Assembly: GCF_000010625.1 (NCBI RefSeq)
Contig: NC_010296.1
Coordinates: forward strand, 5,490,001 to 5,522,000
DNA: 32,000 nt
Direction of reading: 5' to 3'
DNA from: Microcystis aeruginosa NIES-843
GTDB taxonomy: Bacteria > Cyanobacteriota > Cyanobacteriia > Cyanobacteriales > Microcystaceae
A program made the translations under genes and the position numbers. The notes below the pieces were generated by a model. That model saw only the letters and a program-made list of their open reading frames with translations. It did not search any database and had not been told where the DNA came from. Positions 2,876 to 25,680 of this stretch are shown in pieces (position 1 is the first letter of the stretch; the number at the start of each line of letters is the position of its first letter).

Positions 2876-3124
2876 TTGCAAAGGTTATCTGCGTTCGGTG
2901 AGCTTGGTCGTTGGCTGGATTCCATCAATGATCGGCGATCGCAAATTCGTCGCAAATTAGAGGATAGTCCCAGTTTACGCGGTTATCCCGCGCAAATTTT
3001 GGATAAGGAATACACCAGAGCGCGTCGAGAAGCCGCCAGACAAACAGGTTTATTCCTTAGCGTTTTTCCAGAGTTTTGTCCCTATACTATCGCGCAGGTG
3101 ATCGAAGATTGGTGGCCCCAGTGA
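2876..3124 (+). pseudogene. DUF29-family gene, C-terminal fragment only
   Basis: The ending ...NPSLRGYPAQILDKEYTRARREAARQTGL..FPEFCPYTIAQVIEDWWP matches the C-terminal half of cyanobacterial DUF29 proteins. It has a TTG start, a TAG stop just upstream, and lacks the N-terminal half. Confidence 0.5.
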
Positions 3125-3287
3125 TAGCCTTGATTAAAGGTTAAATAATATCAGCCAGACTGGGAAACCATCTGATCAAATTAGTCCCCCCAGAGAACCC
3201 CCCTTGAGCCACATGGCACACTTTTCTTTTCTTGTCAAATTTTATGTTAAGAAAGATGTAACTAATGGATAGGGGGATGATCAAGAA

Positions 3288-4235
3288 TTAACCGTCTTCG
3301 TATTCGGGGATTCTTTCCTTTTTCTTCTCGGTGATATTGATGCGGGGGGGATTGTAATCTGGTTCCACGTCATCATCCCACATATCATCCTCGGCCTTAT
3401 CTTCGTAATCGTCGTACTGAGGACGAGAAAAGCTTTCTGCGCGTTCTGAGCGAGCTTCTCCCCAGTTATCTTCTTCTTCCTCGTATTCTTCCTCATAATA
3501 ACGAGCTTCGGCCCGTTTTTGCGGTGGGGGAGTGGCACGCAGGGGTTCTTTTTCCCATTCATCCTCACTCCAGCGTTCTTCAACGGGTTTAGCGGCCTCA
3601 ACGGGAGTGCGGAGGGGAATGCCCGTACCTAACTGATTTTCCGGACGAGCAGCGGGAGTATAATAAGCTTCTTCCTCTTCTCTTTCCCAGGGGGGACGAC
3701 CAATACCCAAACGTTCCAAAACCCCCACACTAACCTGCGTGAGACGTTCTTCGGCCCCTTCAAAGACAATTAAGCGATTCGGACCGCTGCTAACCACTTC
3801 TTCAATGGCAATTTCGTAGGTACTGATCAATTGTTCGGGGATAAGAGGCAATCCCAGGGAAGCGATGACAATGGAATGTAATTGACCACTGAGGGGATCA
3901 AATTGATAATCGCGGACTTTGCCTAAAGGTTCGCCGGTTTCCGTGATCACTTCACTACCGATTAAGGGAGTATAAGCATCGATATCGACGGATTCCAAGA
4001 CGTTATCATCTTCAACGAGAACCACGTCTCCTGTCTGACTGATGCTCGATAAATACATATATTGAGGCATTCCCGACAAGGAGAGGATATTATCGCGGAG
4101 TCCCAGGGCAACCACTTCTCGTTGATCGATATCTACAAGGATATCTTTAACAACGCCGAGTTTTTTGCCTGTATTGCGAGTGATAACCTGTGTATTTAAA
4201 AATTCTGAACGTAAGCGACTATTCTCTGTGATCAT
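3288..4235 (-). CDS. PRC-barrel domain protein (two PRC-like modules) with an acidic, low-complexity C-terminal tail
   Basis: L..T.VITRNTGKKLGVVKDILVD and GSEVITETGEPLGKVRDYQFD are PRC-barrel-like repeats. The tail is E/D/Y/W-rich. Confidence 0.65.
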   Translation of the reverse strand: MITENSRLRSEFLNTQVITRNTGKKLGVVKDILVDIDQREVVALGLRDNILSLSGMPQYMYLSSISQTGDVVLVEDDNVLESVDIDAYTPLIGSEVITETGEPLGKVRDYQFDPLSGQLHSIVIASLGLPLIPEQLISTYEIAIEEVVSSGPNRLIVFEGAEERLTQVSVGVLERLGIGRPPWEREEEEAYYTPAARPENQLGTGIPLRTPVEAAKPVEERWSEDEWEKEPLRATPPPQKRAEARYYEEEYEEEEDNWGEARSERAESFSRPQYDDYEDKAEDDMWDDDVEPDYNPPRINITEKKKERIPEYEDG

Positions 4236-4450
4236 TTTTTCCTATGGGTAGGCGTTAGGTCGTGGGAATACGAGTTATTGTAGGCTTAATATATAGGGCG
4301 AGATCGAGGGTTAATTTACCGATATTGGCTTAGATCTTAAAGTTCCCTGAGATTAACACTTTTTTTGGCCTTGTTTGGGCGATAGTTTCGGGTGATAGAT
4401 AGGGTTAAACCCATTTTAGCTAATTCTTTACATTTTTTTAGTGACAACAA

Positions 4451-4486
4451 AGCAGGAGCTAGAGAGAAACTCCCTTGGCTCCTGCT
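4451..4486 (-). terminator. hairpin downstream of pdhC
   Basis: AGCAGGAGC(4451-4459)/GCTCCTGCT(4478-4486), a 9-bp stem with an 18-nt loop. On the minus strand it is followed by TTGTTGT, a weak U-tract. Confidence 0.4.
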
Positions 4487-4499
4487 GTCTAGATTCTGA

Positions 4500-5759
4500 T
4501 TACATAGTTAAAGACTGCACCTCAGTTTCGATCAGTTTAGCTAAGTCTTGCAGGAAGGAGGCTGCATCGGCCCCGTAGATGACTCGGTGGTCACTGGTGA
4601 GATTAACCGTCATCTGTTTTTGCACTCCGAATAAACCATCTTTATTGACGACGATTTGGGGACGGGAAGCACCCACGGCTAGGATCGCACCTTGGTTGGG
4701 GGGTAAGATAGCGGTAAAGCGATCGACTCCGAACATTCCCAGATTAGAAATGGTAAAAGTACCGCTATTATATTCTTCCGGTTGCAGTTGTTTACTGCGG
4801 GCGCGATCGACTAAATCTTTCCAACTGCGGGAGAGGGAATAGATATCCATCTGGTCAGCAGAGCGCAAAACCGGCGTAATTAAGCCACCACCAGGCATAG
4901 CTACGGCTACGGACACGTTAATCGCCCCGTGGTATTGGATTCCTGCGTCGCTATAGCTGGCATTAACTATAGGATGTTTAGCGAGGGTGTTGGCTACCGC
5001 TTTTGCTAACAGGGCCGTCATGGTGACACCCTTGGATTTTAGCTGTTGATAGAGTTGATCCAGTGGGTCAGTGGTGATAGTGTAGCCCACTTGGAAGGTG
5101 GGAACCTGTAGGCTAACCGACATATTCTGGGCGACGGCTTTTTGCAGAGTGGTGAGGGGAACAGTCCGACCGACCGGGGCGCTGGCCGGAATCGGGGCTT
5201 TAGGAGCCGCTACAGGCACGCTGACGGGTTGCGGGGGAGTAATGACGGGAGCGGGGGCGGTGCTGACTTTTCCTGTCGCTTTTTCTACGTCTTCGGCGGT
5301 AATTCGTCCGTGGGGACCGCTACCCACTAGGGTTTTCAGATCTACCTTTAATTCTTTAGCCAGTTTTTTGGCCCTGGGAGAGGCGACTAAACGGCCATTA
5401 TCTTTAACGGCGGCGACGGGTATCGAAACGGGAGGCGGAGCGATTTCTGGGGTCTCTACGGGCTTGCTAGGGGCAGCTGTGGCGGTTTTTCCCTGAGCTT
5501 TGGCCAGTTCAATTTCCGCTTCAGTTTCGGCGATATAGGCGATCGCTTCCCCCACGGGTGCTTCCTGGCCGGCTTCGACTAAAATTACAGCGAGATAGCC
5601 ATCATAAAACGATTCTACGTCCATGTCGGCTTTGTCGGATTCGACCACTAACACCGTTTCCCCTTTGCTGACTTTTTCCCCGGGGGACTTCACCCAAGAA
5701 ACTATTTTTCCTTCGGTCATGGTGGAACTGAGCGCGGGCATGAAGATATCTCGAATCAT
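4500..5759 (-). CDS. pdhC: dihydrolipoamide acetyltransferase, E2 component of pyruvate dehydrogenase
   Basis: N-terminal lipoyl domain (MPALSSTMTEGKIVSW...ESDKADMDVE), an A/P-rich linker, a subunit-binding domain (SPRAKKLAKELKVDL) and a catalytic domain with DHRVIYGA. Confidence 0.9.
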   Translation of the reverse strand: MIRDIFMPALSSTMTEGKIVSWVKSPGEKVSKGETVLVVESDKADMDVESFYDGYLAVILVEAGQEAPVGEAIAYIAETEAEIELAKAQGKTATAAPSKPVETPEIAPPPVSIPVAAVKDNGRLVASPRAKKLAKELKVDLKTLVGSGPHGRITAEDVEKATGKVSTAPAPVITPPQPVSVPVAAPKAPIPASAPVGRTVPLTTLQKAVAQNMSVSLQVPTFQVGYTITTDPLDQLYQQLKSKGVTMTALLAKAVANTLAKHPIVNASYSDAGIQYHGAINVSVAVAMPGGGLITPVLRSADQMDIYSLSRSWKDLVDRARSKQLQPEEYNSGTFTISNLGMFGVDRFTAILPPNQGAILAVGASRPQIVVNKDGLFGVQKQMTVNLTSDHRVIYGADAASFLQDLAKLIETEVQSLTM

Positions 5760-5816
5760 GGTGGAGTGCTTCTATCTCTAATGTTTTGAGCCATAGGGCA
5801 TTTTACCACAGTTGAT

Positions 5817-5946
5817 GGGGTATGGGGTGTGGGGAAGTGGGGAAGTGGGGTATGGGGTGTGGGGAAGTGGGGTATGGGGTGTGGGGTGTGGGGAAGTGGG
5901 GAAGTGGGGTGTGGGGTGTGGGGTGTGGGGTGTGGGGAAGTGGGGA
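5817..5946. repeat. G-rich STRR-like tandem array (GGGGTGT / GGGGAAGT / GGGGTAT units)
   Basis: Read directly from the sequence. The 114-aa ORF 5778..6122 is only its translation. Confidence 0.9.
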
Positions 5947-5962
5947 GAATAAATAAAATAAT

Positions 5963-6060
5963 CTCCTGACTCCTGACTCCCGAATACTGACTCCTGACTC
6001 CCGAATACTGACTCCTGACTCCTGACTCCCGAATACTGACTCCTGACTCCCGAATACTGA
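5963..6060. repeat. tandem array of CTCCTGA / CTCCCGAATACTGA units
   Basis: Read directly. It is adjacent to the G-rich array, in the same module order seen inside the GyrA/ParC-family gene. Confidence 0.9.
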
Positions 6061-6130
6061 TAACTGATTACAAAGGGAAAAAGAGAAGGGAAAACAGCCC
6101 CTTCTCCGTCGTATCTAGACAAAAATTGTT

Positions 6131-6874
6131 CTAGTTGCCAATATGGACCGGTTGTGCTTGCAGAGATTCGACTAAACCGCGCACAGCTGCCACCATAGCC
6201 ACTTCATTATCCAATTGATTGATCGCCGAACCAACACCGATACCGGCCGCTCCAGCAGCGATCGCCATAGGAGCGGTGACAATGGATAAACCGGAAGCGC
6301 AGAGGACGGGAACCTTAACTGCATGGGAAATAGCGTGGGCTGCCGCTAAAGTCGGGGCGGCTTTTTCAATCAGTCCCAAAATACCGGCGTGACGGGGTTG
6401 ACTGCTAGTGCCGCCTTCGGTTTGAATAATGTCAGCACCCTGACTAACTAAAGCTTCCGCTAGTCTCACCTGTTCATCGAGGGGCAGCAGATGGGGAACT
6501 GTCACAGACAGGGTAATTTCGGGCAGTAAGTCGCGAGTTTGACGGGTTAGGGCTAAAACTTCCGCCGCCTCAAAAATGCGTCCTTGGGCATAAAAACTAT
6601 CGAAATTACCGATCTCAATTAAATCGGCTCCCGCGTCCACTGCCATCACCAACAATTCTGGCTCGACGGCCGATACACACACGGGTAAATTTGTCAAGGC
6701 TTTTACCGTCCGAATTAGGTCAGCATTAGCGGCAATATCGACAAAAGTTGCTCCTCCGGCTGTAGCGGCTTTAACTACTGAGAGAACCTGCGAGCGATCG
6801 AAATTATTTAACCCACTAATCACTTTCAGGGCATGACGACGGGCGAAGGCTTGCTGTAAGGTAAAATTGATCAT
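6131..6874 (-). CDS. ycf23: Ycf23 / DUF561 family protein
   Basis: ALKVISGLNNFD...GATFVDIAA...ADLIEIGNFDSFYAQGR...LSVTVPH...ADIIQTEGG matches plastid/cyanobacterial Ycf23. Start chosen at MINFTLQQ (CAT at 6872-6874); the ORF track extends to 6916. Confidence 0.75.
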   Translation of the reverse strand: MINFTLQQAFARRHALKVISGLNNFDRSQVLSVVKAATAGGATFVDIAANADLIRTVKALTNLPVCVSAVEPELLVMAVDAGADLIEIGNFDSFYAQGRIFEAAEVLALTRQTRDLLPEITLSVTVPHLLPLDEQVRLAEALVSQGADIIQTEGGTSSQPRHAGILGLIEKAAPTLAAAHAISHAVKVPVLCASGLSIVTAPMAIAAGAAGIGVGSAINQLDNEVAMVAAVRGLVESLQAQPVHIGN

Positions 6875-6966
6875 TAATCTACACCTATCTGGAATTCTCA
6901 AAAAACATTTTCCCACCTTCTCGCCGATCAGAGGGTGGGATTTGAGAATTCTTAGGGAAATTTTCT

Positions 6967-8893: not shown

Positions 8894-9006
8894 CTTTTTT
8901 TTGCTTCCTCTCAGATTAACTCCTGTCAGTTCGCCGTAACAGACAAGGCAGTCAGTGATTTTTGTCTGTTGCAATTTATACAAAACGACGTGCGATTACC
9001 CTGCAA

Positions 9007-10155
9007 TTAATCTTTATTGTCTTTTATTTTCACTGTGCCAGGAAGAATAAAATTTGATTTTCTGATTTCTGGATGTTTTTGTAAGATCCGAGTAGTTTTC
9101 TGATGAATTTCCGAAAGATTACTCACTTTATTTCTTCTAGTATTTTGCCATGAAAAGATTGAATTATTTTGGGAATCTGTTTTTAATAATTTGTCAATTT
9201 CTAAAATAATTGATTCAATTTCAATAGATAAACCACAATAATCAAACAGATAGCTTATGATTTGTTTCGGATGTGTTGTTAAATCTTCATATCGGATAGC
9301 ACAAAGTGGAAGTTTTTGTTGATAAAGCCATAAATAGCGATGCATATAAGACAGCCAACGAACTAAATAAAAATCTATTGAATTTGAATAATCTATTAGA
9401 TCAGAGTATTCTTCAAACAATGTGATAAATCGATTATAGAAATTTTTCTTTTCTTTAATAAGTAGAAGGTGTGAACTCATATATGGATCAAAAGCTCGAA
9501 TACAAGACTCAACAACTTTTTGAGCATCTCGATATAAAAAAATTCCTTTAGAATGAGGAAATACTTTATGTAAAATATCTGCAATTTCAATACAAAAACC
9601 ACGCAATTTAAATACATAAAATGATGGATTTTTTAGTTGATTAGGTTTGCAAAGAAGTGCAGTTAAAACCAACAACAGTTCTGCTAGTTGACAATCGTTA
9701 CTTTTATCAGGCATTCGGAGTCCGACAATTTGGCTAAAAATATCAGGCTCTGATAGACTTATAACATATTCAACTTGATGAAATATTCTGCTAAGTAGAG
9801 TAGATCCACATCGACCAACAGGATAAATAAATATTAGTTGATTGTCAGGTATTTTGAAAGTTTGAGCAAGTTGGCAAATTGTTTCATAAGATATTGCAAT
9901 TAATCGGTGAGCATATTCAAATTGAGCTTGATATAGAAAAGGATATGCAAAAATATCTATGTCAGAAGGAGTTTCGACAAAGATAACTTGTTTTTGTTGG
10001 TGATCTAAACAGTATAAACTAACATTACGTTGACTAACTACTTGTGCAATATCATCAATTTTTTCACCCTCCAAATAATCAAAATCAGATACATCAGCTA
10101 CTAGAGCAGGATTATTTTTTTGCTTTTTTTGAATGTAGAGAAATTGTCCACTCAT
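9007..10155 (-). CDS. sulfotransferase-family protein (PAPS-dependent), with an extra ~110-aa N-terminal region
   Basis: 5'-PSB-like loop PVGRCGSTLLSRIF and 3'-PB-like FLYRDAQKVVES. The gene is AT-rich. Confidence 0.6.
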   Translation of the reverse strand: MSGQFLYIQKKQKNNPALVADVSDFDYLEGEKIDDIAQVVSQRNVSLYCLDHQQKQVIFVETPSDIDIFAYPFLYQAQFEYAHRLIAISYETICQLAQTFKIPDNQLIFIYPVGRCGSTLLSRIFHQVEYVISLSEPDIFSQIVGLRMPDKSNDCQLAELLLVLTALLCKPNQLKNPSFYVFKLRGFCIEIADILHKVFPHSKGIFLYRDAQKVVESCIRAFDPYMSSHLLLIKEKKNFYNRFITLFEEYSDLIDYSNSIDFYLVRWLSYMHRYLWLYQQKLPLCAIRYEDLTTHPKQIISYLFDYCGLSIEIESIILEIDKLLKTDSQNNSIFSWQNTRRNKVSNLSEIHQKTTRILQKHPEIRKSNFILPGTVKIKDNKD

Positions 10156-10191
10156 GATTTGATCGGTTGACTCTATTTTTTTTATTCTTTA

Positions 10192-10881
10192 TTAGCTTGT
10201 TATAACAGTCTCCTGATAAAGTTCATAAAAGTACGCAGCGATAAACTCAGCAATTTTTCTGAGAATATCTATTAAGATTTCTTCATCTGCATATTTTACA
10301 ATAAGACGATGAGCAACATCTAACATCATTTCATAATGATCTTCATTTTCGTCAATTTTCACATGAGCTTTAGCTCCTATTACAAAAGATTTGGAAAATT
10401 TTTCTGCAACTTTATCAATCACATAACCTGAAGATTGATCGGAATTCCATTCAACAAACAAAGAATATGCAACAGCAGGCAAAGAGCCAATCTCCTTAAT
10501 CTTATTTTTTAGATAATCTATCATTGCTTCTGTGGCTTGAAATGGCTGGATTTCAAAAACTTGTTTTTCAGTATATCCGTGTTGACGCAGATCTTTGATA
10601 AATAATAAATCGTGTGTCATTTCCTGTGCAGTATATCGACCCCATAGTCTTGCAGCTTCGTAGTCTTCATCAATCATATAAGCCAAAGCCAGTGCATCTG
10701 TTTGGCTAGTCAGGCGAATACGCTTGATGGTTTCAATTAAGTGGCGAACATAGTATTTTTCATTCAGCACTTGATTTTTATCAGTTAGGTGGCCGGCATA
10801 GGGAACTGTCATTATAATTTTGTTGACTTCTTGCTGGAAAAAAAGTTCAAGGTTTTTTCTCAGTTGCTCACGATTAATCAT
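10192..10881 (-). CDS. heme-oxygenase-like fold / iron-containing redox enzyme family protein (HDO-like)
   Basis: All-helical pattern with YVRHLIE, an ExxH (AQEMTHD), FVEWNS and H..DENEDHYEMM. Start taken at ATG 10879-10881, preceded by GGAG at 8-nt spacing; the ORF track uses GTG 10899. Confidence 0.55.
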   Translation of the reverse strand: MINREQLRKNLELFFQQEVNKIIMTVPYAGHLTDKNQVLNEKYYVRHLIETIKRIRLTSQTDALALAYMIDEDYEAARLWGRYTAQEMTHDLLFIKDLRQHGYTEKQVFEIQPFQATEAMIDYLKNKIKEIGSLPAVAYSLFVEWNSDQSSGYVIDKVAEKFSKSFVIGAKAHVKIDENEDHYEMMLDVAHRLIVKYADEEILIDILRKIAEFIAAYFYELYQETVITS

Positions 10882-11229
10882 GTTTTTTACTCCTGTCACG
10901 AAATAATTTAGGTTCTTTGGTTTGTCTTATGCAATGTACAGGTTTATAAGGAATGAAACTCTTATAGAGAAAGACATTTGGCGATTTTTGTTAATTGTTT
11001 TCGATCTAGAGCGAACTAATCAATTAAATCTCTTGCCAGATAAGGATTTAGTCCATTTATGCCACCCTATCGAACCATACTAAGTAACGAAGAACCATAA
11101 TTGATCAGATTTGAGAGCATCCCAATTTTGCACGTTAGCTGTTTTAAAGAGGAATAAAACTCTTGGGATGCCGTTACTTTGGGTCATGCTTTTACAAAAA
11201 CGGGATGCTCGCTCAGATTTCAGATTTGT

Positions 11230-11382
11230 CTACTTGAGGAGATAAAGTGATAGTGATGTTGTAGTTTTGCCTCCCTTAATGTTTGCAGATTCTTGTTCAT
11301 CTACTTTTGCTGGATTATCACCATTTAATTCATTGACTTTGATGTCAGACGTTGGAAGTTCATTAACTTTGATGTTAGACAT
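11230..11382 (-). CDS. 50-aa candidate RiPP precursor peptide with double-glycine leader (not in the ORF track)
   Basis: Hand translation gives MSNIKVNELPTSDIKVNELNGDNPAKVDEQESANIKGG|KTTTSLSLYLLK*. AGGAGG (complement of 11392-11397) lies 9 nt upstream of the ATG. It is on the same strand as, and upstream of, the HDO-like and sulfotransferase genes. Confidence 0.5.
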   Translation of the reverse strand: MSNIKVNELPTSDIKVNELNGDNPAKVDEQESANIKGGKTTTSLSLYLLK

Positions 11383-11452
11383 TGGAATTATCCTCCTAAT
11401 TAAGGAAAAAGTAATTGGCTTGAGATTGGGTTTACCTCACTCATCTGTCCCT

Positions 11453-11481
11453 ATATTAATCGCTCTCCCAGCAGATGACAA
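11453..11481 (-). promoter_or_regulatory. sigma70-like promoter for the small ORF
   Basis: On the minus strand: TTGTCA (11476-11481), a 17-nt spacer, then TAATAT (11453-11458). The -10 element lies 71-76 nt upstream of the ATG at 11382. Confidence 0.4.
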
Positions 11482-11500
11482 CCCCCTGGAAGGATGATTT

Positions 11501-11529
11501 TTGAACATAATTCTAGTATTTATGTTCAA
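11501..11529. promoter_or_regulatory. perfect 10-bp inverted repeat (candidate operator)
   Basis: TTGAACATAA (11501-11510), 9 nt, TTATGTTCAA (11520-11529). It lies 20-48 bp upstream of the -35 element. A third half-site TGAACATAA is at 11622-11630. Confidence 0.35.
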
Positions 11530-11661
11530 TTTTCAAGGACAGTCCCCAACGAGAAAATAAGGTTTTCCGGTTATTTCGCCAGCAACTTTGAGATGAAAAC
11601 TGAGTTTTGCCCCCTAAATCCTGAACATAAATAAACTATTTATAGCGGTTTTCAGTCTAAT

Positions 11662-11838
11662 ATGGAGGCTATTTTCAATACTCCAATGTCTGCGAATCAC
11701 CTCGGCGTGTTTTTGGGCATCCGCTGCTAAACTACTGATGAAGAAGCGAATTTCTGTCGTAGTTTTATTCCACAATTGGCGGACACTGCGAACTATGACT
11801 ACTACAGCTCTAACCAGTAATTTAGATAGGTCAATCAC
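11662..11838 (-). pseudogene. ISAs1-family transposase, C-terminal remnant
   Basis: ...TTEIRFFISSLAADAQKHAEVIRRHWSIENSLH matches the conserved ISAs1 (H-repeat-associated) C-terminal block. Similarity stops after SLH, and the N-terminal ~300 aa are absent. Confidence 0.55.
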
Positions 11839-16758: not shown

Positions 16759-17947
16759 ATGGAAAAAGCCTATTCTTACCGATTTTACCCCACACCCGAA
16801 CAAGAGTCGCTATTGCGGCGCACTTTGGGCTGTGTAAGATTAGTTTACAACAAAGCTCTCCACGAACGAACACAAGCATGGTACGAAAAGCAAGAAAGAG
16901 TAGGCTACGCTCAAACTTCTTCAATGTTGACCGATTGGAAAAAACAAGAAGAATTAGACTTTTTAAACGAAGTTAGCTGTGTACCTTTACAACAAGGGTT
17001 AAGACACCTACAAACAGCTTTCACTAATTTCTTTGCTGGTCGTACTAAGTATCCTAACTTTAAGAAAAAACATCAGGGAGGAAGTGCCGAATTTACCAAA
17101 TCTGCTTTTAAATTTAAAGACAGACAAGTCTATTTAGCTAAATGCACAGAACCTTTACCTATTCGATGGTCAAGACAAATACCAGAAAGCTGTGAACCAA
17201 GCACAGTAACAGTCAGATTACATCCATCTGGACGTTGGCATATTTCAATTAGATTTGATGACCCAACGATTAAGCCATTACCAGTAACAGATAAAGCCAT
17301 CGGAATTGACTTAGGAATTAGTAGCCTCGTGATTACCAGCGATGGCGATAAAGTATCTAATCCTAAGCATTTTAAAAAGCATTATCAGAGACTGCGAAAG
17401 GCCCAAAAAAGCCTTTCTAGAAAACAGAAAGGGTCAAAAAATCGGGAAAAAGCAAGAATCAAAGTAGCCAAGATTCACGCTCAAATCACCGATAGTAGAA
17501 AAGACCATTTACACAAGCTAACCACTCAATTAGTTCGTGAAAACCAAACGATTGTGGTTGAGAATTTAGCCGTCAAGAATATGGTCAAAAACCCGAAATT
17601 ATCTCAGGCAATATCTGATGTAAGCTGGGGAGAAATCACTCGACAATTAGCCTATAAATGCCGTTGGTATGGGAGAAACTACATCGAAATAGATAGATGG
17701 TTTCCTAGCTCTAAAAGGTGTAGTAATTGCGGGTATATTGCCCTTGAAAATGCCGTTAAATGTTCGAGAATGGGATTGTCCAGACTGTGGGACGCACCAT
17801 GACCGAGATATTAACGCCAGTAAAAATATTTTGGCCGCAGGGCTTGCGGTGTCAGTCTGTAGAGCGACCATAAGACCAGAACAGAGTAAATCTGTTAAGG
17901 CAGGTGCGAAAAATCCTTCGGGAAAGAAGCAGAAACCCAAATCGTGA
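16759..17947 (+). pseudogene. tnpB: tnpB (RNA-guided endonuclease, IS605 OrfB family) interrupted by a frameshift
   Basis: MEKAYSYRFYPTPEQ...LLRRTLGCVRLVYNKAL... is the classic TnpB N-terminus. The frame changes near 17738-17745: ORF1 ends ...[13 protein letters not shown]...*, and the +1 frame continues [35 protein letters not shown] (zinc finger/RuvC-III). Confidence 0.85.
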
Positions 17948-18055: not shown

Positions 18056-19801
18056 ATGTTGCAAGGATGGATTCAAATCGCGCTCACGATCCTGATAATC
18101 GTGGCAATCACCCCCTTTTTCGGGCGCTATATGGCTAGGGTTTTCATGGAACGGAGAACCCTACTCGACCCACTGTGCGATCGAGTCGAGAGTCTTCTTT
18201 ACACCTTCGTCGGGGTGAAAGGGAAAGAGAATATGACCGGCTGGCAGTACACCCGCGCCGTTCTCTACAGTAACGCGGTAATAGCAATTCTGGTTTTTTC
18301 CCTGATTGCGGGCCAAGGAGTCCTTCCCCTCAACCCGACGGGGATCCCCGCCCCTTCTTGGGACACCACGCTACATACGACGATTTCCTTTATCACCAAC
18401 AGCGACCAACAGCATTATTCCGGAGAAACCACCCTCAGCTACGGGAGTCAGATCTGGGGTCTCGGGTACCAGATGTTCACCTCGGCCGGAACCGGTCTAG
18501 CGGTGGGGATCGCCTTTATTCGGGGACTGACGGGGCGACCGTTGGGCAATTTCTACGTGGATCTGATCCGAGCGATCACCCGTATCCTCTTACCGATCTC
18601 GATCGTGGGGGCAATTGCCCTGATCATCGCCGGAGTCCCGGAAACCCTCGCGGGCCCGGCGATCTTGCCGACGCTAGAAAACCCCAACCTGAGTCAGGCG
18701 ATCGCCCGCGGTCCAGTGGCCCACTTCGAGATTATTAAGGAATTGGGAGAAAACGGCGGTGGCTTTTTTGCCAGCAACTCGGCCCACCCCTTTGAAAACC
18801 CGAACGGATTCGTCAATCTGGTGCAGTTGGTAGCGATTCTCTCGATTCCCACCTCCCTGATCTATACCTACGGGGTTTTCGCCGATAATCTCAAGCAAGC
18901 TCGGTTAATCTATCTAATTCCCCTCGGTATCTTCATCGGCTTTACGATCATCACAGCGATCGGGGAATATAACGGCAACCAGGCGGTTAACTCCCTGCTA
19001 GGGGTGGAGCGAGCGGTTAACTTCGAGGGCAAAGAAGTACGCTTCGGTTGGGCGCAATCGGCCCTGTACGCGGTAACTACCACGGCCACCATGTGCGGTG
19101 CGGTGATCGCCATGCACGATTCCTTGATGCCGAACGGCGGCTTCGCCACCCTCTCGAATCTGTTCCTGCAAATCGTTTTCGGCGGCCAGGGAACCGGCAC
19201 CGCCTACCTGTTTGCCTATCTGATCCTTGCGGTATTCGTCACCGGGCTAATGGTGGGGCGAACCCCCGAATTCCTCGGGCGCAAAATCGAGAAACGGGAA
19301 GTGGTGTTAGCGAGTTTTTTAATTCTGCTGGTTCACCCGATCGCCATCCTCATCCCCGGAGCGATCGCCCTTGCCTTTCCCGACTTTCAGGGCATCAGTA
19401 ACCCCGGCTTTCACGGATTATCTCAAGTTATCTACGAGTACGCTTCCGCCGCCGCCAATAACGGGTCGGGATTCGAGGGACTAGGGGATTCCCAACCTGC
19501 GCCGCTTGCGATTGCGGCTGGTGCCAAACCGACGATTACCGCTCTCTGGTGGAATCTAAGCGCCTGCTTCAGTTTACTCGCCGGACGGTATATCCCGATC
19601 GCTGCCCTGCTCTTGTTAGCCGATGGGATGTCCCGCAAACAACCGGTTCCCGCCACCACCGGAACCCTCCGCACCGATACCGGACTCTTTACCAGCGTGA
19701 CGGCGGGGGTGATTTTAATTCTCGGTGCGCTCACTTTCTTGCCGATATTAGCCCTCGGGCCGATCGCGGAAGCCTTTCAAATCACCCGGATGATCGGCTA
19801 G
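18056..19801 (+). CDS. kdpA: potassium-transporting ATPase subunit A
   Basis: 581 aa and polytopic. [10 protein letters not shown]...[10 protein letters not shown]...[10 protein letters not shown]...[20 protein letters not shown] are KdpA hallmarks. Confidence 0.95.
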
Positions 19802-19810
19802 GAGTTTAGA

Positions 19811-20028
19811 CAGGGTTTGCGGCAAAAAGTTTTTCCGGGGGGTAGGGTGTGGGGTGTGGGGTGTGGGGTGTGGGGTTTTACCAGTTTTGAGGTGGCCAAT
19901 TACCTAATTTTCAGGGAAAAAGTGCCTAAATTTCCCCCCGATCACTCCCAGATACAGTACTTTTTGATTGACAAAAGGTCTAAAAGTCTTACCCAACAAG
20001 GTTTTTAGATTTATTCAACCAGCCCTAG
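19811..20028 (+). mobile_element. MITE copy B, filling the kdpA-kdpB spacer
   Basis: cA|GGGTTTGCGGCAAAAAGTTTTTCC...(GGGGTGT)x4...CCAATTACCTAATTTTCAGGG...CCAACAAGGTTTTTAGATTTATTCAACCAGCCC|TA. Confidence 0.75.
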
Positions 20029-20035
20029 ATAATTT

Positions 20036-22195
20036 ATGAGAACGAACAAAGGAAATTCTAAATCCTCCCGCCCGTTGCGAGTGCCGAGAGGTCGCCGGGA
20101 CGACCGCCGCCACACCCCCAAGGTAAACCGGACAGGTCTCTATCAACGCGCGATCCGGCAGTCCTTCCTCAAACTCGACCCGCGCATCGCCGTGCGTAAC
20201 CCGGTCCTGTTCGTGGTCTGGTTAGGAACGATCGTCACGGCCCTGGTCACGATCGACCCGCATCTATTCGGCACGATCGCCGGGGATAGGGGACAACAAC
20301 GGCTACTTAACGGCATCATCACCCTCATCCTCTTCTTCACGGTGCTGTTCGCCAACTTCGCCGAGGCGATCGCCGAGGGGCGAGGAAAAGCCCAGGCCGA
20401 TGCCCTGCGCTCCACCCGCAGCGACACGATGGCCCGGAAAATCCTTGCCGACGGCTCGATCGAGTCGGTCAGTTCCACGGCCTTGGGTCGGGGCGATCGG
20501 GTAAAACTGGTGGCCGGGGACGTGATTCCCGCCGACGGGGAAGTGATCGAGGGAATCGGTTCGGTGGATGAATCGGCGATCACCGGAGAATCGGCCCCCG
20601 TCCTCAAACAACCCGGAACCGACATCGCCAGTTCCGTCACCGGCGGCACCAGGCTTCTCTCGGACGAGTTGACAGTGCGGATCACTCAAGATCCCGGCCA
20701 GGGTTTTATCGATCGCATGATCTCCCTCGTGGAAGGGGCCGAGCGCACGAAAACCCCCAACGAGATCGCCCTGACGGTACTTCTGGCCGTGTTAACCCAA
20801 GTCTTTCTAATTGTCGTGGCCACGATTCCGCCGATCGGGAACTATATCGCCGGTTTCCTGGAAACGAGCCTCGGGCCGGCGGTTGCGGATACCTTTCGGG
20901 CCGGTTCCAGTATCGCCATCTTGATCTCGCTCCTCGTCGCCCTCATTCCCACGACGATCGGCGGTTTATTGAGCGCGATCGGCATCGCCGGGATGGATCG
21001 TGTGGCTCAGTTTAACGTCATCGCCACCTCCGGGCGCGCGGTGGAAGCCTGCGGCGACGTGAATACCCTCCTTCTCGACAAAACGGGAACGATCACCCTC
21101 GGAAACCGACTGGCTGACGAATTTATCCCCGTGAACGGTCATAACCTCGAGGAATTAGCCCGCATCTGTCTAGCGGCCAGCCTTTTCGACGAAACCCCGG
21201 AAGGACGCTCGATCATTGCCTTAGCCCGGAATTTGGGCGCGAACCTCGATATCGATGGCCAACCCGGCGAGGGAATCGAATTCTCCGCTCGTACCCGCAT
21301 GAGCGGCACCGATAGGGCCGGCGAGGAATACCGTAAGGGAGCCGTAGACGCGATTAAAGGTTTCGTCCGTTCCCGCGGTGGTTCCGTTCCCGAAACCCTC
21401 GATGAGGCACAGGAAAGGGTTTCCCGTTTGGGGGGAACTCCCCTCGCCGTCTGTCGGGGTAACGATATCTACGGGGTGATCTATCTCAAGGACATCGTGA
21501 AGCCGGGATTAAAAGAGCGTTTCGACCAATTACGGCGCATGGGTGTGAGAACGATCATGCTCACCGGCGACAACCAGATCACGGCGGCGGTGATCGCGGC
21601 GGAGGCGGGGGTGGATGATTTTATCGCCGAGGCCACCCCAGAAGATAAGATCGAGGTGATCCGTCGCGAGCAATCCCAGGGCAAGTTAGTTGCTATGACG
21701 GGGGACGGAACCAACGACGCACCGGCACTGGCCCAGGCTAATGTCGGTGTGGCGATGAACTCCGGAACCCAAGCGGCGAAGGAGGCGGCCAATATGGTGG
21801 ATCTCGATTCCGACCCGACCAAGCTGATCGATTTAGTGACCATCGGCAAACAGTTACTCATTACCCGCGGCGCCCTGACCACGTTTTCGGTAGCCAACGA
21901 TATCGCTAAGTATTTCGCCATTATCCCGACGATTTTCGCCGCTGCCGGGATCGGTGCTTTAAACATCATGGGTTTGAAAAGCGCTCAATCGGCGATCGTC
22001 TCAGCCCTGATCTACAATGCCCTGATTATCCCCGTTTTGATTCCCCTGGCACTTAAAGGCGTTCAATTTCGCCCGCTCACCGCTGACCAACTATTGCGGC
22101 GCAATATCCTCATCTACGGCGTGGGGGGCGTGATTGCCCCGTTTATTGCTATTAAGATTATTGATGAGATAATTTCAGCGATCGGGTTGAGGTAA
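20036..22195 (+). CDS. kdpB: potassium-transporting ATPase subunit B (P-type ATPase)
   Basis: [11 protein letters not shown] phosphorylation motif, [22 protein letters not shown]. The basic N-terminal extension is typical of cyanobacterial KdpB. Confidence 0.95.
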
Positions 22196-22479
22196 TGGGA
22201 AAATCGGCAATATTTAAGCCTAGTTTATTCGGATTGAAGCACTCGAATCGGGATTTTAGCCAAAAAGAAACATGGGGTAAAAATCAATTTAACTCCTCAT
22301 TTCCAGCTTCTTTGTGCGCTTACTTGGATGGGAAAGGACTGAAAAATGTATATCTGAAACTTGACGAAAATTTAAAAATTCAACCTGCGGAGTTAAGTAC
22401 AAAAGAGTTATACGGTCTAGCTCCCGATTCCGATCATTTATTTTATGCTTTCGAGAGTCAATTTAGAGGAGGGAGCAAA
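22195..22479 (+). pseudogene. 5' stub (~95 codons) of a probable type II restriction endonuclease gene, fused in frame to the MTase ORF
   Basis: The ATG overlaps the kdpB stop (TAATG). FGLKHSNRDFSQKETWGKNQFNSSFPASLCAYL resembles N-termini I associate with HindVP-type REases, a weak recollection. It runs without a stop into the SD/ATG of the MTase. Confidence 0.35.
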
Positions 22480-23038
22480 ATGATCACAATCGATTTATTC
22501 GCTGGTTGTGGTGGTTTATCTTTAGGTTTCCAGAAAGCGGGGTTTACTATTGTGGCCGCATTTGATAATTGGATACCTGCTATAGATGTCTATAGAAATA
22601 ACTTTAGTCATCCGATATTTAATGTCGATTTATCTAGAGAATCTAGCCAAGAAATATTTGCTCAATATAATCCTGAGATTATTGTCGGCAGCCCTCCTTG
22701 TCAAGACTTTTCCAGTGCGGGTAAGAGAGACGAGGGTTTAGGACGAGCGAATCTAACGCTCACATTCGCTGAAATTGTAACTGGAGTAAGTCCGCAATGG
22801 TTTGTTATGGAAAATGTGGATAGAATTGAGAAAAGTAAAATACTCACTCAAGCAAAACAAATTTTTAAAAGCCATGGTTATGGTTTAACTGAAAAAGTTA
22901 TTAATTCTTGTTACTGCGGAGTTCCTCAAACTAGAAAAAGATATTTTCTGATCGGTAAAATGAAGGAAGAAGATGATTTTTTAATCGATGAAATTAATGA
23001 AAATCTATCAAGTCAACCTCTGACTGTATTTGACTATA

Positions 23039-23149
23039 GCATTTCCTAAGCTAGTGAGGTACACCTATTTTTCTTCCCTTTTGCCTTCTGCCTCTTGCCT
23101 TTTGCCTAAAACCCATCACTTTTGTACCTCAGCAGACTGAAAAACGCTA
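23039..23149. mobile_element. 111-bp MITE inside the MTase gene
   Basis: Imperfect 25-bp TIRs: GCATTTCCTAAGCTAGTGAGGTACA vs the reverse complement of the right end, GCGTTTTTCAGTCTGCTGAGGTACA (17/25). TATA direct repeats lie at 23035-23038 and 23150-23153. Removing 115 bp joins ...TVFDY to MGKELDIEYYY in frame. Confidence 0.55.
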
Positions 23150-23435
23150 TATATGGGCAAAGAATTAGATATAGAATACTATTATAGACATCCTAGAAGC
23201 TATCAAAGAAGGGCGATATTCAGTATTTATGAACCTAGCCCTACTATTCGAGGAGTAAATCGACCAGTTCCCAAAACCTATCGACAACATCCCGGGGATG
23301 CTTGTCATCTTAAGGAAAAATTAAGACCGCTAACAACGAGGGAGCGAAGCTATATCCAAACTTTCCCTAAAGACTTTATTTTTGCTGGAACAAAATCTAA
23401 TCTAGAACAAATGATTGGCAATGCTGTTCCTATTA

Positions 23436-24385
23436 TAGTCATTTCAAATAAGTGTGAGACGAGGGAAAAATAAGGTAAAATCAAGAGAAACGAGCAACCC
23501 ATACAGAAAAATGTCTTATAGCCTAGACTTGAGAAAAAAAGTAATCGATTATGTAGAGAATGGGGGAAGCATAACCAAAGCCGCCGCTCTATTTAATATA
23601 GGAAGAGCGACGATATATAGATGGCTAGGTAGGGAAAAACTGGAAGCAACAAAGGTAAAACACCGTCAGAGAAAGCTGGACTGGAAAGCACTGTCAAAAG
23701 ATGTCCAAGAAAATCCCGAGGCAAGATTAAGAGACAGAGCCGAGAAATTTGGAGTGAGACCAAGTGCCATTTGCTATGCCTTAAAAAACATGAAAGTTAC
23801 CAGAAAAAAGAAGGAACTTCGTTATAGAGAAAGAAACCGAGAAGAAAGAATGAAATACTACAGAGTGCTGAGAGAATTGATTAAAATATATGGAAGTGAA
23901 AGCCTTGTATTTATTGATGAGTCAGGGTTTGAAGAATTTCAAGCCTGTTTTTATGCTTGGTCAAAAAAAGGGAAGAAAGTCTTTGGAGATAGACAAGGAA
24001 AACGAGGAAAAAGAGAGAACCTTGTCGCTGGTAGAAGAAAGGGAAAAAAAGACTTTATTGCACCGATGGTATTTACGAGAAGCCTGAATGCCGAAGGTTT
24101 TGAAGGGTGGTTATCTTTATATTTGTTGCCCTCTCTAACCATAACATCAGTATTAATTATGGATAATGCACCAATTCATCGGAAGACAGTCATTAAACAA
24201 CTGGTAGAGGAAGCAGGTCATCAGGTCGTGTTTTTGCCAAAATACTCTCCTGATTTAAATGATATCGAACATGATTTTAGTGCATTAAAGAGGGCAAGAA
24301 TGTATGCTCCTGTGGGGACACCCCTTGATGAAATTATTCGTACTTATTGTGTCGCCTAGTGTCTCGTTCTTATTTGAAATAACTA
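23436..24385 (+). mobile_element. IS630-family insertion sequence (950 bp) with TA target duplication
   Basis: TIRs are TAGTCATTTCAAATAAG...GAGAC and, from the right end's reverse complement, TAGTTATTTCAAATAAG...GAGAC. Flanking TA at 23434-23435 and 24386-24387. Excision restores GNAVPINLARYVGQCILNY. Confidence 0.85.
23511..24359 (+). CDS. IS630-family DDE transposase
   Basis: N-terminal HTH (ITKAAALFNIGRATIYRWL). DDE residues lie in FIDESG, IMDNAPIH and SPDLNDIEHDFS. Start taken at MSYSLDLRKK; the ORF track starts at 23454. Confidence 0.85.
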   Translation: MSYSLDLRKKVIDYVENGGSITKAAALFNIGRATIYRWLGREKLEATKVKHRQRKLDWKALSKDVQENPEARLRDRAEKFGVRPSAICYALKNMKVTRKKKELRYRERNREERMKYYRVLRELIKIYGSESLVFIDESGFEEFQACFYAWSKKGKKVFGDRQGKRGKRENLVAGRRKGKKDFIAPMVFTRSLNAEGFEGWLSLYLLPSLTITSVLIMDNAPIHRKTVIKQLVEEAGHQVVFLPKYSPDLNDIEHDFSALKRARMYAPVGTPLDEIIRTYCVA

Positions 24386-24511
24386 TAATTTGGCTAGATA
24401 TGTAGGCCAATGTATTCTTAACTATGAATTGAAAAAAGGGAAAAAGACAACCTATCGACAACTACAGCTAAGTAAGTGGTTATAATTAAATTGAAAATAG
24501 ATTTTGTCTTT

Positions 24512-24585
24512 GATCCCCCCTTAATCCCCCCTTGATAAGGGGGGTGTCGATCCCCCCTTAATCCCCCCTTGATAAGGGGGGTGTC
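24512..24585. repeat. 2 x 37-bp tandem repeat, each unit a C6/G6 hairpin
   Basis: The unit GATCCCCCCTTAATCCCCCCTTGATAAGGGGGGTGTC is repeated exactly (24512-24548, 24549-24585). Confidence 0.9.
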
Positions 24586-24661
24586 TGATAATTTTTAACG
24601 CCTACCTACTTATTTTCTTGATTTACTGGCAAAAACAAATCTCCAAAAAACTCTAATTCTT

Positions 24662-24868
24662 ATGAAAGCAGCCCCTAGAAAATACCGATTTTTTGGGTAC
24701 ATTTTCTTAAATTTCTGTCTAACAATTCTTTTCTCCTCCATCGTTCAAGCTTCTACGGGAAGCACTATCGATAGGGGGCAAGCCTCTGCATTAACCCTTT
24801 TAGGATTAGTCGCCTTTGCTTTATTTATCTATCTGTTCTTGGTCATCTTTGTACCGGAGAGGTTTTAA
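24662..24868 (+). CDS. small two-TM protein with a KdpF-like C-terminus (KdpF/KdpG-type subunit)
   Basis: The C-terminal LLGLVAFALFIYLFLVIFVPERF* matches the KdpF consensus ending (..YL..AL..PE.F). It sits between kdpB and kdpC. Confidence 0.55.
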   Translation: MKAAPRKYRFFGYIFLNFCLTILFSSIVQASTGSTIDRGQASALTLLGLVAFALFIYLFLVIFVPERF

Positions 24869-24966
24869 GAGATTTCTGGCACAATTAATTTTTGAGAGTT
24901 CAAAAATGGGAAAAAGCAGAAAATCTCTAAATAGACTCTTTCATTGATTGTTGTTTATTCTTAATT

Positions 24967-25032
24967 CTCCTGACTCCTGACTACTGGCTCCTGACTCCTA
25001 ACTCCACCAACAAACTTTTTCAGTAAACCCTA
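24967..25032. repeat. CTCCTGA-type repeat module ending in a MITE-type terminus, directly upstream of kdpC
   Basis: ctcctgactcctgactactggctcctgactcctaactccaccaacaaactttttcagtaaacccTA; compare 12640-12702 and 29941-29974. Confidence 0.7.
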
Positions 25033-25035
25033 ATT

Positions 25036-25680
25036 ATGAGTTTTGCACGCGAGGCCGGTAGAGCCATCCGTTCTACCCTAGTTCTCTGGGTAATTACTGC
25101 CCTGATCTATCCTTTCTCGATGATCGCCATCGGTCAAATTCTTTTTCCCTGGCAAGCAAACGGGAGTTTAATTACCAATAATCAAGGTCAAGTGGTGGGT
25201 TCGGCTCTAATTGGGCAACCTTTCATCAGCGATCGCTATTTTAATAGTCGTCCGAGTACCACCAACTACAGTACGGCCGATCCGAAAAACGATCCTAACA
25301 AAGTCCTGCAAACCGGAATTTCGGGGGCGAGTAACCTAGCTCCCAGTAACCCCGCATTAATCGATCGCATTAAAGGAAAACCCGATCCCGATCCGGCAAA
25401 AGCTATACAGGGGGAGATTCCCCGATTAGAGAAAGGGGCAATTAAACCCACCGCGGCTCTGGTGTACACCTCCGGTTCTGGTCTTGATCCCCATATCACC
25501 CCGGAGGCCGCCAGAGCGCAGATCGAGCGGGTGGCGCGGGTGCGGGGATTACCGACGAATCAAGTGGAGATCCTCGTTACCAAAAACACCGACGAGCGCT
25601 TTCTCGGCATCTTCGGCGAACCGGGGGTTAACCTACTGAAACTGAATCTGGCTCTAGATGCGATCGCAAATACCCGATAG
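25036..25680 (+). CDS. kdpC: potassium-transporting ATPase subunit C
   Basis: N-terminal TM segment, then ...FPWQANGSLI...GSALIGQPF....YF.SRPS...SGASNLAPSNP...SGSGLDPHITPEAA..Q..RVA..RGL. Confidence 0.9.
   Translation: MSFAREAGRAIRSTLVLWVITALIYPFSMIAIGQILFPWQANGSLITNNQGQVVGSALIGQPFISDRYFNSRPSTTNYSTADPKNDPNKVLQTGISGASNLAPSNPALIDRIKGKPDPDPAKAIQGEIPRLEKGAIKPTAALVYTSGSGLDPHITPEAARAQIERVARVRGLPTNQVEILVTKNTDERFLGIFGEPGVNLLKLNLALDAIANTR

Follow-up and report, generated by a model that had tools for sequence, protein, structure and literature searches.

A peptide gene, an MboA-type diiron oxidase and a sulfotransferase in Microcystis aeruginosa: a candidate divergent member of a rare ribosomal-peptide family

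We analysed a stretch of 32,000 nucleotides of the Microcystis aeruginosa NIES-843 genome (NC_010296.1, positions 5,490,001 to 5,522,000; hereafter, the window), in which three co-directional genes on the minus strand, spanning 11382-9007, encode a 50-aa peptide, a diiron oxidase of the heme-oxygenase-like type (HDO) and a sulfotransferase dependent on 3′-phosphoadenosine-5′-phosphosulfate (PAPS). An original prediction, made from the letters of the window, had described them as a cassette for a peptide that is ribosomally synthesised and then modified post-translationally (RiPP) within an AT-rich islet. All three genes exist as described, and the islet is borne out by a GC content of 28-38% across 9001-11500 compared with about 42-48% in the flanks. 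The cassette comprises the following features:

11382-11230, minus strand: precursor peptide gene, 50 aa, reading MSNIKVNELPTSDIKVNELNGDNPAKVDEQESANIKGG and then KTTTSLSLYLLK, with the putative GG cut site between them
11397-11391, minus strand: Shine-Dalgarno sequence AGGAGGA of the peptide gene, 8 nt 5′ of the ATG, read from the sequence
10881-10192, minus strand: HDO gene, 229 aa, MboA-type diiron oxidase by homology to MboA, metal ligands and AlphaFold fold
10155-9007, minus strand: PAPS-dependent sulfotransferase gene, 382 aa, by Sulfotransfer_3 match, PAPS motifs and fold
11329-11387, minus strand: 30-nt tandem duplication within the leader, a direct repeat with 90% identity and a spacing of 30 nt
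11115-11210, minus strand: stem-loop with 16-nt arms between the peptide gene and the enzyme genes, from an inverted repeat and RNA folding
10903-11096, strand not assigned: insertion of ~190 nt, resembling a miniature inverted-repeat transposable element (MITE), between the peptide gene and the HDO gene, absent from allele L075

The HDO gene is separated from the sulfotransferase gene by 36 nt. Its open reading frame (ORF) could be extended to a GTG at 10899 (235 aa), with the ATG at 10881 being favoured by the alignment of homologues. The 229-aa product is a diiron HDO and, on sequence comparison, one of the type of MboA (PDB 9ypi). Searched with phmmer, it matches MboA at an E-value of 8.6e-22 over residues 35-221, and a profile built from 25 homologues does so at 4.7e-37. 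The metal-binding residues, noted earlier as an ExxH motif plus further ligands, are E87/H90, E144, H173, D177 and H182, plus D91. They are invariant in the 25 homologues and align one-to-one with E86, H89, D90, E143, H172, D176 and H181 of MboA, in which D90 is a facultative ligand beside the other six (PMC13185094). The AlphaFold model (predicted local distance difference test 95.5, predicted template-modelling score 0.92) has an all-helical heme-oxygenase-like fold, and its best Foldseek matches in the PDB are 3dde, TenA, UndA, CADD, HrmI and BesC (best TM 0.7-0.8). The match to PF14518 (18.8 bits, E 1.5e-3) lies below the gathering score of 28.9; PF14518 hits are precomputed for many HDO homologues, placing the family at the edge of that model. 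NCBIfam yielded no match for the three window proteins, the other precursors or the other HDOs. The heme-oxygenase-like identity claimed for this protein is thus secured by its similarity to MboA, its ligands and its fold, whereas Pfam alone remains sub-threshold. We rejected two other assignments: a PqqC-type cofactorless oxidase, the name given to homologues in some sources, because the protein has the full set of diiron ligands and lacks a PqqA/B/D/E context, and a thiaminase TenA, because the likeness is limited to the fold and the ligand set is at odds with it.

The substrate of MboA is the tripeptide Leu-Ala-Arg, whose C-terminal Arg it desaturates and whose carboxylate is a ligand of Fe1 (PMC13185094). 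The guanidinium-binding residues N57, D61 and D139 of MboA correspond to T58, D62 and S140 in the window HDO, with the Thr invariant and the Ser nearly so in the family, while the proposed catalytic Y82 is kept as Y83. In line with the prediction, the nearest characterised relative of the HDO is an enzyme that modifies a peptide and not a free small molecule. The window HDO is 100% identical to M. aeruginosa P0001, and its exact sequence is present on 33 contigs (a database count). It shares 59-64% identity with cyanobacterial HDOs and 40-56% with the rest, and groups with that of locus L007 in the tree. The family is rare: when 1.84 billion representative proteins were searched exhaustively with a profile, 175 matched at E<=1e-3, of which 43 reached E<=1e-30.

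It is very probable that the small ORF upstream of the enzymes encodes a true precursor and has the HDO as its partner. The peptide begins MSNIKV, has a Gly-Gly at residues 37-38 and ends S-L-Y-L-L-K. The double-glycine leader had been read correctly, with G37-G38 preceded by I at -4, E at -8 and V at -12 and followed by a 12-aa core, KTTTSLSLYLLK. The strong Shine-Dalgarno sequence also stands and is kept in a second Microcystis allele, that of contig L075. The prediction had further given the small ORF its own promoter, and this part finds no support in the sequence: the best site, TTGTCA-17-TAATAT (11481-11453), has 9/12 matches; nine such sites occur in the region compared with a mean of 12.4 in shuffled sequences, which is not above chance; and the second allele is unrelated in sequence beyond ~20 nt 5′ of the ATG. 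The leader duplication copies the N-terminal (S/D)-N/D-IKVNEL motif (SNIKVNELPT and SDIKVNEL). As a side observation, the IK-V-x-E-L motif is present in two copies in the Microcystis leader and in one in other cyanobacterial precursors.

The case for the pairing of precursor and HDO rests on its recurrence elsewhere. We collected 65 non-Microcystis loci encoding HDO homologues from genomes and metagenomes; 57 of them contain, near the HDO gene, an ORF ending in [L/M/F/I/V/A]-D-[L/I/V/T]-[L/I/V]-K-stop. Recurrence of a small ORF beside HDO homologues had been set beforehand as a test on which the prediction could fail; with homologous or analogous short ORFs in these 57 loci, which belong to many phyla, the prediction was not refuted. 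The motif ORF usually lies 17-450 nt upstream of the HDO gene and is sometimes convergent just downstream of it; in one clade it is found 1.6-3 kb upstream, with a carbamoyltransferase and/or a DUF6445/2-oxoglutarate (2OG)-type gene in between. The eight loci lacking a motif ORF are mostly short contigs with <0.9 kb of upstream sequence. Stop-to-stop segments ending in the motif number 58 of 12,419 near HDO genes versus 2 of 18,602 elsewhere in the same loci. All 38 distinct tails have K at -1 and D at -4; 27 of them have G at -6, and the residue at -5 is M/L/F/V/I.

The regions preceding the motif are unrelated between groups, being of a helical type ("RLxSGxLTxxD...RLPxG"), a Pro/Gly/Ala-rich type of 150-350 aa or the cyanobacterial type. 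In a neighbour-joining tree, the HDOs group by the type of their precursor (cyanobacterial GG, helical-leader, long Pro/Gly-rich and five-codon mini-ORFs), which speaks for co-evolution of precursor and HDO. The most conserved part of the family is its C-terminal hexapeptide, an unusual layout for a RiPP. This corrects the prediction, which had described a hydroxyl-rich core behind the GG: the part conserved across the family is instead the C-terminal G-[M/L/F]-D-x-x-K, so that the likely target of the HDO is the C-terminal Lys.

Peptides of this family are nearly invisible to gene callers and protein databases. Pfam returned nothing meaningful for six precursors, these peptides are without a model in either Pfam or NCBIfam, and a word-indexed protein search with an alignment of four cyanobacterial precursors retrieved three proteins, all either already known or a Microcystis allele. 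In the searchable literature, mostly outside subscription journals, we found no description of the D-x-x-K precursor family, its HDO or the Microcystis cassette. The family is, apparently, a rare and undescribed ribosomal-peptide system composed of a short D-x-x-K precursor and an MboA-like oxidase.

Within this family, the window peptide is, mainly by synteny and its shared ends, of the cyanobacterial type. The precursors of loci L007, L034 and L037 begin MA[D/E]IK[L/I]Y, continue through an acidic stretch to a GG and end G-L-D-L-[V/L]-K; their middles contain repeats (SFV[D/E]AV three times, KLYxE three times or GSMVTLG twice). In a fourth cyanobacterial locus, L078, a sequence ...GLDIIK is found at the contig edge. 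The window peptide shares with those of L007, L034 and L037 an N-terminal M-x-x-IK-[VIL], the GG and an L-x-L-[LV]-K end, and its C-terminal L-Y-L-L-K is the counterpart of the family motif [M/L/F]-D-x-x-K. The predicted GG is present in all four full-length cyanobacterial precursors at broadly similar spacing and absent from the ~50 non-cyanobacterial ones. When the window was searched with a hidden Markov model (HMM) of the L007, L034 and L037 precursors, the window peptide ranked first among 946 six-frame segments. Pfam and NCBIfam gave no match for it, and it belongs to neither the Nif11 nor the NHLP leader family.

The 50-aa ORF is identical among Microcystis contigs L001-L003. In the second allele (contig L075, peptide P0179), the Shine-Dalgarno sequence, leader and 3′ spacer are identical to those of the window, and the core is KTTTKTSLYLVK in place of KTTTSLSLYLLK. 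Five nucleotide changes are clustered in the core, where five of the six differences between the alleles lie, and all core substitutions change an amino acid; Tyr47 and the terminal Lys are kept in both alleles, as are the frame and the leader. The peptides of the two Microcystis alleles vary in the core only, and the cyanobacterial precursors share the N-terminus, the GG and the C-terminus around variable, repeat-containing middles.

In the other cyanobacterial loci, orthologues of one 2OG-Fe(II) oxygenase are present, in some cases together with HpaB. In Microcystis, the sulfotransferase stands in their place, and tblastn searches for remnants of the 2OG oxygenase or HpaB in the window found none. 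One contig of the cyanobacterial clade, L038, is more elaborate: a second operon (3096-6899, minus strand) encodes a 603-aa protein with an N-terminal TENA/THI-4/PqqC-like region, a 311-aa protein and an FMN-binding protein, and its precursor, ending ...RLPGGLDLIK, is convergent on the HDO operon, which also contains an S8 peptidase and a formyltransferase-like gene.

At the other end of the size range are long low-complexity precursors of 150-350 aa from Mycobacteriales, Burkholderiales and others, which end ...RLPFGMDVVK or ...PSLAGPVAMDVVK. Because the motif ends proteins of this length, the substrate is not always a small peptide. These Pro/Gly/Ala-rich precursors, which are the ones located 1.6-3 kb upstream of the HDO gene, are encoded at:

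L020:977-1849
L021:2-889
L023:7343-8200
L022:3-581
L030:7024-8013
L066:1932-2987

The opposite extreme is seen in loci L014, L016, L018, L019 and L025, which have no long precursor and instead a five-codon ORF 60-130 nt upstream of the HDO gene. With two further cases, one of them located just downstream of its HDO gene, the mini-ORFs lie at the following positions (approximate for the first five):

L016:6903-6920
L018:9898-9915
L019:9879-9896
L025:9887-9904
L014:7920-7937
L050:18-35
L058:995-1012 (just downstream of the HDO gene)

They read ATG GAT ATC ATC AAG TAA (MDIIK) or ATG GAC ACC ATT AAA TAA (MDTIK), with MDIVK also seen among the seven loci. Each of the first five loci belongs to a lineage of its own (an uncultured gammaproteobacterium, Rhodobacteraceae, Mariprofundaceae, Poriferihabitaceae and Arenicellales). 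Each is preceded, 5-7 nt upstream, by a strong Shine-Dalgarno sequence (AGGAGG, AAGGAGG, GGAGG or AAGGAG), and in four of the five loci a stable GC-rich hairpin follows. The pentapeptide that they encode matches the final five residues of long precursors, and the differences between mini-ORFs are mostly synonymous third-position changes (GAT/GAC, ATC/ATT, AAG/AAA), together with Ile/Thr at codon 3 (ATC/ACC). The HDOs of these loci form their own clade in the tree. Neighbouring genes encode a sulfotransferase, a Lys/Orn N-monooxygenase and a carbamoyltransferase (all Pfam-confirmed), as well as putative EamA/LysE-type exporters assigned by reading the sequences.

These observations suggest that the five-codon ORFs may be directly translated pentapeptide precursors and support the notion that the HDO would need only the C-terminal pentapeptide of its substrate; if so, they may be the shortest ribosomal natural-product precursors. 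The precursor of microcin C7, MccA, has 7 residues. The mini-ORFs of L014, L016, L018, L019 and L025 resemble it in being very short, in having a strong Shine-Dalgarno sequence and in placing the would-be modification site at the C-terminal residue; they differ in being shorter still, at five codons, and in having an HDO instead of an adenylyltransferase. The comparison applies to these five loci and does not extend to the 50-aa peptide of the window.

The 382-aa protein matches Sulfotransfer_3 at E 3.3e-11 (44.3 bits, gathering score 27), and both PAPS motifs attributed to it are present, GRCGSTLL at 114-121 and R209/S217, being invariant in 31 homologues. A beta-rich N-terminal domain of ~100 aa precedes the sulfotransferase domain. 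The top 11 Foldseek PDB matches of its AlphaFold model (predicted local distance difference test 92.7) are all tyrosylprotein sulfotransferases (TPSTs), those to TPST1, TPST2 and a tick TPST having E-values of 5e-7 to 1e-5. Its homologues, of which there are at least 373, are for the most part cyanobacterial and 45-50% identical to it. A sulfotransferase of this type is missing from all 65 other HDO loci. The predicted trio of peptide, HDO and sulfotransferase therefore stands in part: the precursor-HDO pair is conserved, while the sulfotransferase falls outside the conserved system and is a lineage-specific addition to the cassette.

A different sulfotransferase adjoins the HDO gene in L016, L018, L019 and L025 of the mini-ORF clade. 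Direct comparison of the two types revealed no detectable similarity, which implies independent recruitments, so that the association of HDO and sulfotransferase arose at least twice. A functional link is favoured by this recurrence and by the peptide itself: of all precursors, only the one accompanied by the TPST-like sulfotransferase has a Tyr where Asp is otherwise invariant. As a hypothesis built on a single evolutionary event, a sulfotyrosine at position 47 would restore a negative charge there.

Homologues of the window sulfotransferase also mark loci of another kind. In L039:3470-9196 (Nostoc) and L042:4776-13137 (Okeania), one is accompanied by a cytochrome P450, one to three EryCIII-like UDP-glycosyltransferases and an adenosine 5′-phosphosulfate (APS) kinase or second sulfotransferase, which suggests a separate, uncharacterised pathway to a sulfated glycoside or lipid in filamentous cyanobacteria.

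The present arrangement of the cassette is derived. In allele L075, which lacks the ~190-nt insertion, the stop codon of the peptide is 154 nt from the ATG of the HDO gene; the peptide gene and the enzyme genes were ancestrally one compact unit, which the insertion has split in the window. The insertion ends in a 7-nt inverted GGTTCTT...AAGAACC, and AATTAT is duplicated at its flanks; no further copies of it occur elsewhere in the window. It is probably a MITE that mediates rearrangement. The insertion is present in contigs L004-L006, as are the HDO and sulfotransferase genes; homology of these contigs to the window stops exactly at the upstream edge of the insertion, beyond which lies a histidine-kinase gene or a STAND-NTPase gene. 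Contig L005 additionally has a DDE_Tnp_1_assoc fragment downstream of the sulfotransferase gene. The adjacency of HDO and sulfotransferase is kept in 6/6 Microcystis contigs across three upstream contexts. The two enzymes always travel together, and the peptide gene has become separated from them in some strains.

A stem-loop between precursor and enzyme genes is a layout common in RiPP operons. The one that follows the peptide gene here folds at -31.9 kcal/mol (z -2.7; 3 of 200 shuffled sequences fold equally well) and may be an attenuator or processing site. Analogous hairpins lie 3′ of the peptide ORFs in L016, L018, L019 and L025 (z -3.4 to -3.9), as well as in L078. The Rfam scan of the entire window detected no family.

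Taken together, we lean towards viewing the cassette as a Microcystis-specific, divergent member of the family of precursor plus MboA-like oxidase, working along the following lines, in which substrate, chemistry, processing and the part played by the sulfotransferase are inferred. The 50-aa peptide would be translated from its strong Shine-Dalgarno sequence, and the stem-loop behind its stop codon would lower read-through into the enzyme genes. The HDO would then hold the free carboxylate of Lys50, the C-terminal residue, on Fe1, in the way that MboA holds Leu-Ala-Arg, and would desaturate, hydroxylate or N-oxygenate the side chain of this Lys; such an oxidation is proposed on account of the homology to MboA and the invariance of the C-terminal Lys. 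In what is the weakest step, the PAPS-dependent sulfotransferase would sulfate the same peptide, most attractively at Tyr47 or, alternatively, at a hydroxyl installed by the HDO. Finally, a peptidase encoded elsewhere would cut the leader off at G37-G38.

Several observations weigh against this proposal. The score of the window peptide against the cyanobacterial-precursor HMM is modest (9.8 bits, E 0.05), so that its assignment to the cyanobacterial type rests mainly on synteny and shared ends; the tail HMM of the D-x-x-K family does not recognise it, and it has Tyr for the family-invariant Asp and Ser for the usual Gly at -6. In this strain, the insertion sets the peptide gene apart from the enzymes, and in L004-L006 the HDO-sulfotransferase pair sits behind unrelated genes without a peptide gene. 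No peptidase or exporter for the peptide is encoded in the 32-kb window. As for the sulfotransferase, homologues in Nostoc and Okeania are accompanied by P450, UDP-glycosyltransferases and APS kinase, and neither in these contexts nor in that of Microcoleus does an HDO or a credible precursor lie beside them. On this basis we reject a sulfotransferase family dedicated to peptides, and its native substrate class may be small molecules.

The last of these points feeds an alternative in which precursor and HDO form a functional pair and the sulfotransferase is a neighbour, co-transcribed or not, that leaves the peptide alone and acts on another acceptor, such as a glycoside, a lipid or another small molecule. 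It draws on the size and mostly cyanobacterial distribution of the sulfotransferase family, with the Nostoc (L039) and Okeania (L042) contexts described above, on the absence of this type from the 65 other HDO loci and on the use of a 2OG oxygenase, with or without HpaB, by the other cyanobacterial loci. We nevertheless judge it rather unlikely: the two enzyme genes share strand and low GC content across a gap of just 36 nt, the pair has stayed together in six Microcystis contigs even though the DNA on either side has been rearranged, and an unrelated sulfotransferase has been recruited beside the HDO in L016, L018, L019 and L025. Furthermore, the closest folds are those of peptide-tyrosine sulfotransferases, and the change of Asp to Tyr coincides with the presence of the sulfotransferase. 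The same change can be read in the opposite sense, as the loss of an essential residue in a decaying relic that has also lost most of its core, has had its operon split by mobile DNA and yields no modified product. The Asp at -4 that is invariant in 38 other tails is Tyr here, the core measures 12 aa compared with 21-28 aa in relatives, the ~190-nt insertion separates the peptide and HDO genes, and the 2OG oxygenase and HpaB are absent without remnants; in addition, a putative transposase remnant lies upstream in the window, the DDE_Tnp_1_assoc fragment is 3′ of the sulfotransferase gene in L005, and some strains have the HDO and sulfotransferase without the peptide gene. Decay is, however, improbable given that all three ORFs are intact, that the exact HDO is found on 33 contigs with every metal ligand kept and that the sulfotransferase retains all invariant residues of its family. 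The two alleles, for their part, keep frame, leader, Tyr47 and Lys, and differ in the core by amino-acid-changing substitutions only, which is typical of live RiPP precursors and not of pseudogenes.

Finally, the small ORF could be a chance or regulatory upstream ORF, with the enzymes tailoring a small-molecule substrate, be it a free amino acid such as lysine or something else. Most characterised HDOs (BesC, HrmI, UndA, SznF) do act on free amino acids or fatty acids (PMC13108848), the mini-ORF loci carry a Lys/Orn N-monooxygenase (by Pfam) and putative EamA/LysE amino-acid-type exporters (by sequence reading), and five-codon ORFs followed by hairpins could be attenuators. Yet the mini-ORFs encode exactly the last five residues of long precursors, with mostly synonymous differences, and proteins of 50-350 aa whose leaders are unrelated also terminate in this motif. 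A regulatory upstream ORF needs no invariant Asp and Lys across phyla and leader types, and the nearest characterised enzyme acts on a peptide C-terminus; we regard this explanation as very improbable.

The proposed precursor-oxidase system is best placed by comparison with those already known. MboA (mangotoxin, Pseudomonas syringae; Badding et al., JACS 2026, PMC13185094) is the closest solved or characterised relative of the HDO, with the same seven ligands and the Tyr, and its target is the last residue of a short peptide with the carboxylate on Fe1, as proposed here. In contrast to the proposed ribosomal substrate ending in Lys, its substrate is the non-ribosomal Leu-Ala-Arg made by ATP-grasp ligases; two of its three guanidinium-binding residues are replaced in our family (N57 to T and D139 to S), which lies on a long branch away from MboA in the tree. 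No ATP-grasp ligase, MboB-type (Fe2S2-flavin) reductase or amidinohydrolase is encoded in the window.

An HDO in a RiPP pathway is not wholly new. In Streptomyces varsoviensis, the thiovarsolin enzyme VarO (Santos-Aberturas et al. 2019, PMC6511847) dehydrogenates, in released peptides derived from Ala-Pro-Arg, the side chain of the C-terminal Arg, and a 2026 review cites it as the only ribosomal-peptide case for HDOs (PMC13108848). The likeness to the window HDO, drawn by description, consists of an HDO in a RiPP cluster, a repeat-containing precursor and a basic C-terminal residue. The thiovarsolin system differs in its class-defining YcaO and TfuA (thioamidation), its target Arg and its unrelated precursor; no YcaO-TfuA pair was found among the window ORFs of at least 100 aa run against Pfam (most of them) or among the genes called in the related cyanobacterial loci. 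It thus appears that an HDO-tailored ribosomal peptide is of a known kind, and that what is new is an HDO as the core enzyme of a family spanning many phyla.

Nor are sulfatyrotides the sole sulfated RiPPs, as had been assumed, since some methanobactins, conopeptides and sulfonated lanthipeptides belong with RaxX in this category (PMC11143521). The cassette resembles the sulfatyrotide system of Xanthomonas (RaxX, RaxST, RaxB) in its GG-type leader, its core Tyr and its TPST-like PAPS sulfotransferase. It differs in having no peptidase-containing ABC transporter, adjacent or in the window, in the non-acidic context of Tyr47 and in the extra N-terminal domain of a sulfotransferase whose family is found mostly outside peptide contexts. 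The HDO, a conserved partner here, is lacking in RaxX systems, and Tyr sulfation here is a hypothesis.

The neighbours of the cassette are GlmU, an AhpC/TSA protein, an FGGY kinase and others (by Pfam). The earlier statement that the window holds no C39-peptidase/ABC exporter agrees with its ORFs of at least 500 aa, which are KdpA, KdpB, GyrA and GlmU. One small ORF lies 5′ of the cassette:

11614-11838, minus strand: 74-aa ORF, putative transposase remnant, from the ORF listing, without a Pfam hit

Its HWSIENSLH motif is one that we take to resemble those of DDE transposases, and the ORF may be a transposase remnant at the edge of the islet. Farther along the window, kdpA (18056-19801) and kdpB (20036-22195) have a GC content of 54-60% in a genome of ~42%. 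Between them and kdpC (25036-25680) lie an IS630 transposase (23454-24359) and a fragment in which a HindVP endonuclease and a C5-methylase are fused (22195-23049), and an IS605-type TnpB (16759-17802) lies directly 5′ of kdpA. The kdp operon (18056-25680) looks like one that was horizontally acquired and then interrupted.

A bolder version of our proposal, which we advance tentatively and consider possible rather than probable, is that the MboA-like oxidase defines a new ribosomal class in which it oxidises the C-terminal Lys of G-[M/L/F]-D-x-x-K, with precursors as short as five codons, and that the Tyr of the Microcystis member is sulfated, giving a peptide with both an oxidised Lys and a sulfate. 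In Acidobacteriota, Proteobacteria, Actinomycetota, Bacteroidota, Chloroflexota and Cyanobacteria, the HDO is the sole constant partner of the motif, which is a class-defining pattern. HDOs are a fast-growing source of unusual oxidative chemistry, and VarO has tied them to ribosomal peptides as a tailoring step only. Should the five-codon ORFs be translated substrates, the minimum size of a ribosomal natural-product precursor would be lowered. A recognition element of five or six C-terminal residues would also make synthetic peptides usable in vitro, and may serve as a portable C-terminal tag for side-chain functionalisation. The product of MboA is an antimetabolite warhead, and an analogous Lys-derived warhead is plausible. 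If the proposal is true, a peptide with an oxidised C-terminal Lys and a sulfate would be a combination undescribed before, and in bloom-forming Microcystis the cassette would represent a cryptic, strain-variable peptide outside the known peptide classes.

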